Source of the DNA: Escherichia phage DK-13
DNA: 64,000 nt
Direction: 5' to 3' (one strand)
Sequence record: MT611523.1
Below the pieces are notes generated by a model. The model did not search any database. It saw only the letters and a program-made list of their open reading frames with translations, and was not told the DNA's origin. This document shows positions 53,399 to 55,987 of this stretch, piece after piece (within the stretch, counting starts at the first letter, position 1; every line of letters begins with the position of its first letter). Made by a program: the position numbers and the translations under genes.

Positions 53399-53689
53399 TC
53401 ATTTGCAACGTTCCTCTTTTAGTTCAGAACGATAATAACATAACATACCTTTTTGGTCATGTACATATCTTTTTACATCATTCATCCAAATCCTGAATTC
53501 TTGCGATGCCTCAAAAGGCATACCAACCCACGGCTGACCTTCAATTACCTTCACTTCCCATTGCTGCTTATAATCAGCCAATGCAGCAGGCCAATTAGGA
53601 TGAACTTGGATTGTGGGCTCCACAACGGGCTTCTGGGCGCACGAAACGAGCCCAATAGCCAAACATACTGCCATGATAGATTTCATCAT
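53399..53689 (-). CDS. Putative outer-membrane spanin (lipoprotein)
   Basis: Signal peptide with lipobox LVSC-A; 4-nt overlap with upstream inner-spanin-like gene. Confidence 0.6.
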   Translation of the reverse strand: MMKSIMAVCLAIGLVSCAQKPVVEPTIQVHPNWPAALADYKQQWEVKVIEGQPWVGMPFEASQEFRIWMNDVKRYVHDQKGMLCYYRSELKEERCK

Positions 53690-54039
53690 TTGGTGAGCTC
53701 CTGGAAGTCCTGGGCGAACTTATCAAAAGACTGATTAATCTGTTTTTCAACTAATTTAGGCTTCGCGGCCACAACCTTAGTACGTTTTGCATCTGCACGG
53801 AGTTTATCATTTTCCTTCTGCAGGTGTTCAACATATTCCTGACGTTGCTGGTCAAGGAGATTAATTTGATTAATCTGGTCTTTTACTGATTGTAGATTTT
53901 TCGCGTTATCTTCTGCGACTTTGGTGACTTCCGCCACCGCTGTCTTGAGATTATCCACTTTTGCTTTTAGATAGAAACCACTACCAGCAGTTACTACCAG
54001 GGCGAGCATAAGCCCTGCAGTGAGATTACTTATTTGCAT
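53686..54039 (-). CDS. Putative inner-membrane spanin
   Basis: N-terminal transmembrane helix followed by coiled-coil periplasmic region. Confidence 0.6.
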   Translation of the reverse strand: MQISNLTAGLMLALVVTAGSGFYLKAKVDNLKTAVAEVTKVAEDNAKNLQSVKDQINQINLLDQQRQEYVEHLQKENDKLRADAKRTKVVAAKPKLVEKQINQSFDKFAQDFQELTK

Positions 54040-54533
54040 AACTTGATGATTACCTCAACAATATCATCCTGGGATAAACCATTCAGGAGGATGTGATTTG
54101 TGCTGTCAGATGCTGAAATGCGGAACTGATTACCAACTTCATCCGCCATATCATCCTGGGTTAACACTGGATGTTTAATTCCCAGGCGGTGTTGAAGTGT
54201 CAGGGGTTCAACCACAACATAACAAACACATCCATTGATATGTACATTAGGTTGGGTCTGGTTAATGAACACTTCTGCATCATATTTAACCAAATGGTTC
54301 TTTAAGAATTCAACCATTTCAGGAACAGATTCATGCAGTGCTTCTTTCCGCTCTTCTGATTTTTTATCGCGATATTCTTTTTGTTTCGCCTTCAACTTTT
54401 TGTTAGAGGCGAGTTTTTTCCGCAGGTCAGTCATAAGACCAATTTTCTTGGTCCCTTTATAGACATAAATTCCGTCATGACGGTCACCATATTCATTGAC
54501 AATCATTTCATTTGAAATCAGTTGCATATCCAT
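54030..54533 (-). CDS. alc: Putative Alc (host transcription termination/unfoldase) protein
   Basis: 167 aa from internal ATG, same length as T4 Alc; position between spanins and rnlA. Confidence 0.55.
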   Translation of the reverse strand: MDMQLISNEMIVNEYGDRHDGIYVYKGTKKIGLMTDLRKKLASNKKLKAKQKEYRDKKSEERKEALHESVPEMVEFLKNHLVKYDAEVFINQTQPNVHINGCVCYVVVEPLTLQHRLGIKHPVLTQDDMADEVGNQFRISASDSTNHILLNGLSQDDIVEVIIKLCK

Positions 54534-54546
54534 AATATTTTCCTCA

Positions 54547-54780
54547 TTAGTAGCGGTTATAACCCCGGGGACCAAAAGAGTTGGCACCCAGGCGCTCATC
54601 TTTCTTTTTGGCTCTTGCTCTAAACCCAGAATCACCTGTTTGAGCTTTCAGTTCTTTTAACAATTTGGCCTTCAGGTCAGTAATGAAACCAATCCGGCGG
54701 TCTCCCTTATAGACATAGATTCCATCATTTCTGTCACCATATGCCTTTGTAACTCTGTCATTTGTAATTAAGTTTAACAT
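54547..54780 (-). CDS. Alc N-terminal-domain paralog (77 aa), possible duplication remnant
   Basis: First ~45 aa homologous to N-terminus of the downstream alc-like gene (YGDRNDGIYVYKGDRRIGFITDLKAKL versus YGDRHDGIYVYKGTKKIGLMTDLRKKL); GAGGA RBS. Confidence 0.45.
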   Translation of the reverse strand: MLNLITNDRVTKAYGDRNDGIYVYKGDRRIGFITDLKAKLLKELKAQTGDSGFRARAKKKDERLGANSFGPRGYNRY

Positions 54781-54850
54781 GTTTTGGTCCTCATCAGTAG
54801 TTGATGGAACCATTATGTATAGAAAGAAGGGGCTTGTACACCCCTTTTTA

Positions 54851-55987
54851 TTATTCAGGAAGGATTACTTCCGCTTGGTAGTCTAACGGAATGTAAAGTT
54901 TATGATTTTTAAGGAAAACTTTATTGATTTGAGCAATCGTTTGTTCAGTTTCCTGTGGGCGTTGATAGGTGTTCATTAATACGGAGAACAATCCCGGGTA
55001 AGGTTTGCACAACTCTTGACCTTTAATCGCAAACTCGCGACGGTCTTTTCCTGCCAATTGTTTCTGAGCATCAAGCAACAATCCAAGAGTGTTGGACAGA
55101 TAATCCAGATGCGTTACAGTAAAGGCATTAACTTTTTCGCGAGCATAAGTATCGCCAGTAAACATGGCAATAACATCATCCGCCCCGCCAGCAACAACAA
55201 CTTCAAACAGTCGCTCATTATTATTAATGGAGTCTTTAGTATGATGCAGAGCACAATACCATTCTGTTTTCATCTTGAACTTCTGACCACTTGCCAACTC
55301 GTAGACGAAGCCTTCAATCTCTTTCATACCACGGACATTCTCAATGCTCGCCGGGTCATATGCTTCAACCAGGAAAGGACGGAGCGCAGCATCTTTGAAC
55401 AGTTCCTGATAAGGAATATATTCACCAGTTTCATTATGGCGAACGTTCAGTAAAATCAGGTCACGTTCCTGGTAAGGCAAAACAATGCGGTTGGTTGGTG
55501 CAACATATTCCATATTGCATGTATAACCAGCTTCAGTGATTTCAGTTACGCGAGTCCTGAATGCACTGCGATGCTCTTGTTTAAACACCTGCAAGGATTC
55601 AGCAGCTTGGGAGCTTTTGATTGACCCTTTGGATTTAAAGGCGATATTAGTCTGGTCCATATAAGTAGAAACCAAGCTACCATCAGCTTTTGCAGTAACC
55701 AGGACAACCTCATCAAGGTTAAGGTCCATGGTCATTGGATTCTCACCCAGATTAAAGAATTTTTCCATAGGACGGGCGGCAATGCGAACTGGACCATTGT
55801 CATCCATTTCAAACATAATGCCACGACACTCCAGCGCATCATCAAGGAGCCAATCACTATAGGAAGCATAGTTATAGCTAAAGATGCGGAACTTAGTTTC
55901 AAATGGAGAAACAAAATCCGTATAGAAAAACTTACCTTTATCGGATTCGGCGCAAAGCTTCATTAAGTTATCATATAATTCAATCAT
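54851..55987 (-). CDS. rnlA: RNA ligase 1
   Basis: 378 aa; nucleotidyltransferase motif TAKADGSLV; synteny. Confidence 0.85.
   Translation of the reverse strand: MIELYDNLMKLCAESDKGKFFYTDFVSPFETKFRIFSYNYASYSDWLLDDALECRGIMFEMDDNGPVRIAARPMEKFFNLGENPMTMDLNLDEVVLVTAKADGSLVSTYMDQTNIAFKSKGSIKSSQAAESLQVFKQEHRSAFRTRVTEITEAGYTCNMEYVAPTNRIVLPYQERDLILLNVRHNETGEYIPYQELFKDAALRPFLVEAYDPASIENVRGMKEIEGFVYELASGQKFKMKTEWYCALHHTKDSINNNERLFEVVVAGGADDVIAMFTGDTYAREKVNAFTVTHLDYLSNTLGLLLDAQKQLAGKDRREFAIKGQELCKPYPGLFSVLMNTYQRPQETEQTIAQINKVFLKNHKLYIPLDYQAEVILPE

Follow-up and report, generated by a model that had tools for sequence, protein, structure and literature searches.

The Alc protein of phage T4 makes the RNA polymerase of Escherichia coli terminate on DNA that contains cytosine, though not on modified phage DNA (PMC2988021, PMC2939025). 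Host paf mutations that block Alc affect residues 345-372 of the RNA polymerase beta subunit, at the mouth of the main channel, and include R368H/C and P345S/P372L (PMC2939025, PMC2988021). This work concerns a short relative of Alc, namely AlcB, encoded by the gene alcb in a stretch of 64,000 nucleotides (nt) of Escherichia phage DK-13 (sequence record MT611523.1), hereafter called the window. The gene (54547..54780, including the TAA stop codon) lies directly upstream of alca (54030..54533), the full-length alc gene that encodes the inhibitor of host transcription. These two genes, and all other features given below, are on the minus strand.

The gene itself is not new, because it is already annotated in GenBank and catalogued in PHROGs. 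The GenBank record of Shigella phage SP18 (GQ981382, RefSeq NC_014595) names it alcb, 'similar to N-terminal region of ... Alc'. It corresponds to SP18_gp241 in this phage and to VR7ORF243c in phage vB_EcoM-VR7, and PHROG family 17715 matches its product from end to end (E=9.1e-54, residues 1-77 aligned with positions 1-77 of the profile). Between these entries and the gene in the window there is no difference of substance: the proteins are 96-100% identical, count 77 amino acids (aa), carry the same tail and are encoded between rnlA and alc, while the DNA of the window is 98% identical to its best match over 1.5 kb. A literature search found no paper that discusses alcb. The explanation that we consider best as a whole, with a probability of roughly 70%, is that alcb is a selected gene that arose from an old duplication of alc and, more tentatively, that it encodes a binder built on the N-terminal module (N-module) of Alc that modulates shut-off.

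AlcB and the N-terminal module of Alc

The ATG of alcb is located at 54780 and its stop codon at 54549-54547, and a GAGGA Shine-Dalgarno sequence (54788..54792) precedes the ATG by 7 nt. The sequence-only reading had described a 77-aa open reading frame (ORF) with its own GAGGA directly upstream of a 167-aa alc-like gene, and its coordinates are confirmed by the sequence and the ORF list. It had, however, let the feature run to 54813. An in-frame ATG at that position would give 88 aa, but in six of the 15 relatives a TAA stop interrupts this frame before 54780 is reached, so that 54780 is the real start of alcb. The neighbouring alca product (167 aa) matches Pfam ALC over its full length with 164.9 bits. 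The real start of alca is the ATG at 54533, with the conserved start region ATGAGGAAAATATT.

Homology of AlcB to the N-terminus of Alc, as had been claimed, is supported at several levels. The two products of the window share 31 of 64 aligned residues in BLASTP (E=6e-17). Pfam ALC (PF17527) matches AlcB residues 2-59 with 40.3 bits (profile positions 3-62 of 177; curated cut-off 25 bits), and the Alc family phrog_1253 does so with E=6.5e-13 (positions 3-63 of 169). When the alignments of both families are compared with hhalign, AlcB residues 2-49 correspond to Alc residues 3-50 with 99.4% probability, and nothing is aligned past residue 50. The copies can also be aligned as DNA, as noted earlier from the letters: 76 of 123 codon-aligned nt (62%) are identical, and the local alignment score of 41 exceeds that of all 500 codon shuffles (11.0 +/- 1.6, maximum 25). 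The similarity is not a short low-complexity stretch, because it holds the I, G, D-G-I and G residues that are invariant in the Alc family; the approximately 50 N-terminal residues shared with T4 Alc further include its D-L.

The homologous part is encoded by codons 2-49 of alcb (54634..54777) and covers the N mini-domain and the start of the helix that follows it. In the AlphaFold2 (AF2) model of Alc, made from the family alignment (predicted local distance difference test, pLDDT, 92), the N mini-domain spans residues 1-33 (helix 8-15, hairpin 23-33), followed by a 47-residue helix (34-80) and a C-terminal alpha/beta domain (87-166). The model of AlcB has a pLDDT of 74 overall and above 90 for residues 11-40, and places a helix at 7-14, a hairpin at 22-32 and a second helix at 33-48, beyond which the chain is predicted to be disordered (pLDDT about 50). 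As modeled, AlcB thus reproduces the N mini-domain and the beginning of the long helix of Alc, a predicted helix-hairpin-helix start that it shares with T4 Alc, without the whole C-terminal domain. AlcB has no counterpart of T4 Alc residues ~51-167, which form the greater part of the long helix and all of the alpha/beta domain, including the Q-P-N-V, H and D-D-I motifs that are invariant there. Similarly, the invariant C-terminal columns of the family (F-x-N-x-x-Q-P-N-V, Y, P, G-I, H, D, C) are absent, and with 77 aa AlcB falls short of the full Alc architecture, in which ~165 aa are divided between the N mini-domain, the long helix and the alpha/beta domain at the C-terminus. In view of its length, the end of the hhalign match at Alc residue 50 and the missing columns, AlcB is therefore a domain-level relative and not an Alc. 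It derives from a larger paralog of which it keeps one module only, as is characteristic of a micro-paralog.

Codons 50-77 (54550..54633) encode a basic tail that is specific to AlcB and unrelated to T4 Alc; it is predicted to be disordered and has no detectable homology to Alc in hhalign. AlcB has an isoelectric point (pI) of 9.9-10.1 and a net charge of +6 to +8.5 in all four lineages compared, whereas Alc is near neutral. The tail had been described as basic, which holds, and as merely diverged, which does not: it contains a motif that is conserved across distant orthologs. This motif (AlcB residues 52-77 in the window) consists of G-F, a basic run, G-x-N-S/T-F-G-P (54568-54588, unchanged in every lineage compared) and a terminal N-K/R-F/Y, with N67, F69, G70, P71 and N75 invariant in the alignment.

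The source of the tail cannot be recovered from sequence comparison. Tail DNA of three lineages was compared with the rnlA 3' end plus leader and with alca beyond codon 47, and nothing rose consistently above shuffles; the lone match (p=0.014) occurs in metagenomic contig L017 only. MAFFT places NSFGP on the N-Q-T-Q-P of Alc, but hhalign gives no support for this, and resemblances picked out by eye, to 'ESVPEM' of Alc and to 'FIPEGY' at the C-terminus of RnlA, found no support either. A Foldseek search of the AlcB model against the PDB returned nothing with E<1, and fold comparison of the Alc and AlcB models gave no convincing structural relative. The PDB sequence search yielded no relative of AlcB, and no relative of Alc with a solved structure.

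Conservation, distribution and origin of alcb

The window belongs to the VR7/SP18 group of T4-type phages (genus Gaprivervirus), and the 1.5 kb around the locus is 92.6-98.0% identical in DNA to 33 records of this group. The 77-codon frame of alcb is intact in all 15 genus loci compared, while a shuffled 76-codon frame of the same composition would be stop-free with a probability of about 0.005. The ratio of non-synonymous to synonymous change (pN/pS) is 0.12 for alcb, compared to 0.13 for alca, 0.12-0.14 for the spanin genes and 0.10 for the 3' end of rnlA, and 16 of the 22 variable sites of alcb fall at third codon positions (binomial p=1.8e-4). Within the genus, the tail alone has a pN/pS of 0.04, and 10 of its 13 variable sites are third codon positions. 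In comparisons between the deep lineages, synonymous change has reached saturation (pS 0.7-0.8), pN stands at 0.28-0.42 and the length of AlcB is kept within one codon. Frame breaks, a pN/pS near 1 and a lack of codon-position bias, the marks of a pseudogene, are not seen in alcb, with metagenomic contig L018 as sole exception. Judged from these comparisons, alcb is a real protein-coding gene that is kept under purifying selection, not debris.

Among sequenced phages, AlcB occurs in the genus Gaprivervirus only. At ≥95% aa identity it is encoded in 33 phage records, all of this genus, and a second Alc-like place occurs in 35 records of the phage collection, i.e. these 33 and two copies of phage G28. 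More than 1000 other phage records encode Alc once, without AlcB. The comparison of one-copy and two-copy relatives that had been suggested shows the short ORF present and intact in 15/15 close relatives and a single alc in these other records. Beyond cultured phages, four metagenomic contigs of three lineages (L015/L016, L017 and L027) encode AlcB orthologs of 77-78 aa with about 45-51% identity at the same position. The Alc of L015/L016 and L017 is 76-77% identical to that of the window; in L027, the AlcB ORF is found downstream of the 3' end of rnlA, with an ATG 10 nt past the stop of the ORF, and the contig ends before alc. In the lineages L022 and L024 (Alc at most 64% identical), alc directly follows rnlA. 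Word-indexed protein searches retrieved five AlcB clusters only, and an exhaustive hidden Markov model search of 1.84 billion representative proteins returned no further AlcB-type protein, only full-length Alc and a 63-aa fragment of phage G28.

The position of the family is constant: in the window, the 15 genus loci and L015-L017, alcb is located between rnlA and alc on the same strand, with its stop 10-13 nt before the alc ATG. Single-copy phages have a T4 early-type promoter, GTTTAC(A/T)-17-TAnnAT, and the start region ATGAGGAAAATATTATG directly before alc. In two-copy phages, the homolog of this promoter precedes alcb, and the ancestral start region precedes alca, letter for letter. This is the layout that is expected after a tandem duplication from the leader to the middle of alc. 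In the window, the 24 nt before each of the two Shine-Dalgarno sequences resemble each other with an equal offset (18/24, p=0.003). A partial tandem duplication of the alc 5' region, as the sequence-only reading had proposed, is the simplest origin of alcb, given the promoter now found before alcb, the similar ribosome-binding regions and the parallel in phage G28. The duplicated segment extended from near the ribosome-binding region to around codon 50-60 of alc, and the event dates to an ancestor shared by Gaprivervirus and its uncultured sister lineages. N-domains of AlcB are 45-67% identical to their own Alc, about as far as from the Alc of other genera, so the duplication is old. In a tree of the N-domain (51 columns), the AlcB sequences group together with 25% bootstrap, and a single origin of AlcB, as suggested by these sequences, rests mainly on the shared tail and position.

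Escherichia phage vB_EcoM-G28 (Tequatrovirus, NC_054916, 2087-2500) offers a fresh counterpart. It carries a tandem repeat, 100% identical over the 171 nt aligned, with a unit of about 350 bp that comprises the rnlA 3' end (~49 codons), the leader and alc codons 1-48. The duplication yields a 63-aa ORF of Alc(1-48) plus junk (gp179, 'N-terminal part of inhibitor of host transcription') and a 33-aa ORF of a C-terminal RnlA fragment, and none of the 494 matching records apart from G28 has it; the repeat may be either a very recent event or a product of misassembly. Like alcb, gp179 is an ORF for an N-terminal Alc fragment between rnlA and alc that stems from a tandem duplication including the leader. 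In contrast to the old alcb, it reflects an independent and very recent event, as its repeat is identical to the phage's own alc, and its tail is out-of-frame rnlA sequence; gp179 shows no evidence of selection. G28 can be regarded as illustrating the kind of event that could have given rise to alcb.

Variation also marks the neighbouring gene. The first ~47 codons of alca occur in the genus as two deeply diverged alleles, MDMQLISNEMIVNEYGD...TKKIGLM... and MNMQLISNDMIVDVYGD...SKNVGFL... (loci L001-L014), between which pS is about 0.55, compared to 0.14 for the rest of alca. From these sequences, the junction of alcb and alca (window 54390-54640) looks like the centre of a recombination mosaic.

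Layout of the locus and database records

The order of elements is rnlA, hairpin, promoter-like site, GAGGA, alcb, spacer, alca, pseT.3 and pseT.2. The upstream gene rnlA (54851..55987) encodes RNA ligase 1 (378 aa) and is annotated as such in all relatives. Just past its stop, a hairpin resembling an intrinsic terminator, AAGGGGTGTACAAGCCCCTT followed by a T-rich run, is found at 54827..54846 and is nearly invariant in the 15 relatives. A putative early-type sigma-70 promoter-like site, TGTACA-17-CATAAT (54812..54840), is the positional homolog of the promoter directly upstream of alc in single-copy phages, based on a side-by-side comparison of the leaders of G28/T4-type phages, L022, L024, L015, L017 and L027. 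Its -35 element falls within the rnlA hairpin. The 70-nt intergenic region between rnlA and alcb as a whole is nearly invariant in the 15 genus members, whereas the flanking coding DNA varies by 5-7%. The GAGGA of alcb is kept in 14 of the 15 relatives and reads GCGGA in the remaining one.

On the other side, the GAGGA of alca (54541..54545) stands directly after or overlaps the alcb stop; in relatives, this region reads TAATGAGGA or TGAGGA. The spacer from the alcb stop to the alca ATG measures 13 nt in the window and 13 or 10 nt in relatives. The end of alca overlaps by 10 nt with pseT.3 (i-spanin, 53686..54039), which is followed by pseT.2 (o-spanin lipoprotein, 53399..53689). The assignments of both spanin genes are based on the ORF list and the annotations of relatives, and for pseT.2 also on a match to Pfam Phage_T4_Spanin in L015. 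A programmed frameshift that fuses AlcB to Alc was rejected as a candidate: upstream of alca, 34-38 codons of its frame are open in most lineages, but only seven in L017. The records of CJ20, vB_YenM_P8 and DCP80 and the proteins P0003 and P0004 have alca begun 22-34 codons too early (188-201 aa). These over-long calls overlap alcb in another frame (window 54534-54635), and the extension is not conserved, with the same seven open codons in L017.

Database labels of alcb, such as 'inhibitor of host transcription', 'PRC domain-containing protein' and 'hypothetical', are transferred or automatic. In Escherichia phage 212 (PQ765507), product names are shifted by one gene, so that alcb is labelled 'RNA ligase', and the 'PRC domain-containing protein' of EAWsc9 (PQ341120) finds no support in a Pfam scan. 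In Escherichia phage DCP80 (PQ671644), similarity to the window ends just after alca, from about 2600, the pseT.3 ORF is shortened from 351 to 249 nt and the record counts only 140,978 bp, which together suggests a deletion or rearrangement downstream of alc.

Possible functions of AlcB

AlcB combines three parts, namely the N mini-domain of Alc, the first ~15 residues of its long helix and a new basic tail that is predicted to be disordered. The gene would be the first of the early transcription unit that also carries alc, to which T4 alc belongs as well. As the alcb stop abuts the alca Shine-Dalgarno sequence, AlcB and Alc should be made together. AlcB keeps every invariant residue of the N-module and has no C-terminal domain; it therefore most likely docks where the N-module of Alc docks. 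The prime candidate target would be the RNA polymerase of the host, in the vicinity of the beta 'paf' site, and AlcB docked there could act as a modulator of Alc-type termination by competing with or tuning Alc, while the basic tail may provide a second, AlcB-specific contact with nucleic acid or RNA polymerase. That AlcB binds the partner of the N-module, plausibly RNA polymerase, and thereby modulates Alc-type shut-off is a tentative proposal from sequence. Its sharper form is doubtful; here AlcB would be a dedicated modulator that docks on RNA polymerase autonomously and, at the paf site, competes with or tunes Alc in phages with modified, unglucosylated cytosines.

A similar principle is known from plant and animal transcription factors as microProteins, small dominant-negative paralogs that keep the interaction domain only. 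AlcB is likewise a short paralog with one module of a multi-domain regulator, without the effector part and predicted to be co-expressed. It differs in its conserved extra tail, which simple dominant-negative fragments do not need.

Several observations weigh against the proposed origin and role. Non-synonymous change is ~2-3 times faster in AlcB than in Alc. Metagenomic contig L018 (protein P0002) has a deletion and frameshift in the AlcB tail, which may stem from a tolerated loss or from faulty assembly. The N-terminal alleles of alca and the variants of AlcB reassort freely within the genus, which lends no support to a specific contact between AlcB and the N-domain of Alc. The resemblance between the leaders of alcb and alca is significant in the lineage of the window only, not in the others. 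It would be an odd design for a competitor and its target to come from one early transcript, unless the two differ in stability or affinity. A literature search found no expression, binding or phenotype data on AlcB. For Alc itself, the domain that contacts RNA polymerase is not established and the mechanism is unresolved (PMC2988021).

Two of the four alternatives that we weighed deny the AlcB protein any importance. The earlier suggestion of a decaying remnant, a non-functional leftover of the duplication that is open by chance, could invoke the truncation of the copy, its faster non-synonymous change, the frameshifted tail of L018 and the example of G28, where fresh and presumably neutral duplications of the same kind occur. 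Such a leftover is hard to reconcile with a frame that stays intact in 15/15 genus members and in four contigs of three lineages whose synonymous sites are saturated, with the low pN/pS and the third-position bias, or with a conserved tail motif and Shine-Dalgarno sequence, and we consider it highly improbable. The purifying selection shows instead that the protein matters, in line with the other suggestion made at that time, a functional truncated paralog. Only slightly more credible is a leader ORF whose translation couples or tunes that of alca while the peptide itself is irrelevant. The alcb stop lies within or next to the alca Shine-Dalgarno sequence in every lineage, which speaks for such coupling, but the aa sequence itself is constrained, including invariant motifs, and single-copy phages have the same start region without any upstream ORF. 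Moreover, no RNA structure hiding the alca start is predicted, since its Shine-Dalgarno sequence and AUG have an unpaired probability of 0.5-0.8.

The other two accept a functional protein with a different task. AlcB may be an obligate partner of Alc that binds it via the N-module or helix, as a positive subunit or as a chaperone for folding, solubility or activity. This would suit the constant adjacency of the genes, with a 10-13-nt spacer and the stop abutting the Shine-Dalgarno sequence, a layout typical of proteins made in fixed proportion; it would also suit the 47-residue helix exposed in the model of the Alc monomer and the insolubility of T4 Alc when expressed alone (PMC8076793). The more than 1000 records with Alc but without AlcB indicate, however, that Alc does not generally need AlcB; AlcB variants and the N-terminal alleles of alca show no co-variation, and only ~15 helix residues are left in AlcB, so that we hold this role to be unlikely. 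Equally unlikely to us is a neofunctionalised basic binder of nucleic acids (e.g., for disruption of the host nucleoid or mRNA binding) that acts independently of Alc and its RNA polymerase site. The pI of about 10 and the positive charge, concentrated in the disordered Arg/Lys/Gly-rich tail, speak for it, as do the conservation of this tail without detectable Alc homology and the evolution faster than that of Alc. On the other hand, AlcB keeps all invariant N-module residues of the Alc family, which argues for a retained ancestral interaction, and no nucleic-acid-binding fold or family was matched with Pfam or Foldseek.

The genome chemistry of the genus was considered as well. Gaprivervirus phages are described without dCMP hydroxymethylase and both glucosyltransferases (PMC12115623, PMC8056088), and VR7 (NC_014792; 24131-25345, 34641-35676) has no gene 42, beta-gt or alpha-gt at the T4-syntenic sites. 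In VR7, VR7ORF049c (167 aa, hypothetical) is located between uvsX and 42.1. The idea that AlcB shields unmodified phage DNA from Alc is not supported and falls because the cytosines of VR7 DNA are reported to be modified, though unglycosylated (PMC6326788). The association of alcb with the lost hydroxymethylcytosine pathway is a coincidence within a single clade.

As an annotation, alcb is ordinary, and the moderate interest of the gene lies in what AlcB could reveal about Alc, since the way in which Alc terminates RNA polymerase only on unmodified cytosine DNA has been unexplained for decades after its discovery. Together with G28, the locus documents how a partial tandem duplication can give birth to a gene in T4-type phages, at a fresh stage in G28 and at an old, refined one in Gaprivervirus. 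That a naturally occurring, selected protein has only the N-module of Alc suggests that the module works independently, and AlcB, being small and presumably soluble, could serve as a reagent for mapping what the N-module binds. If AlcB indeed docks on RNA polymerase, it would be a natural separation-of-function fragment, in which case the N-module of Alc would dock RNA polymerase and the C-terminal domain would read the DNA, and it would give a direct handle on the mechanism of Alc.

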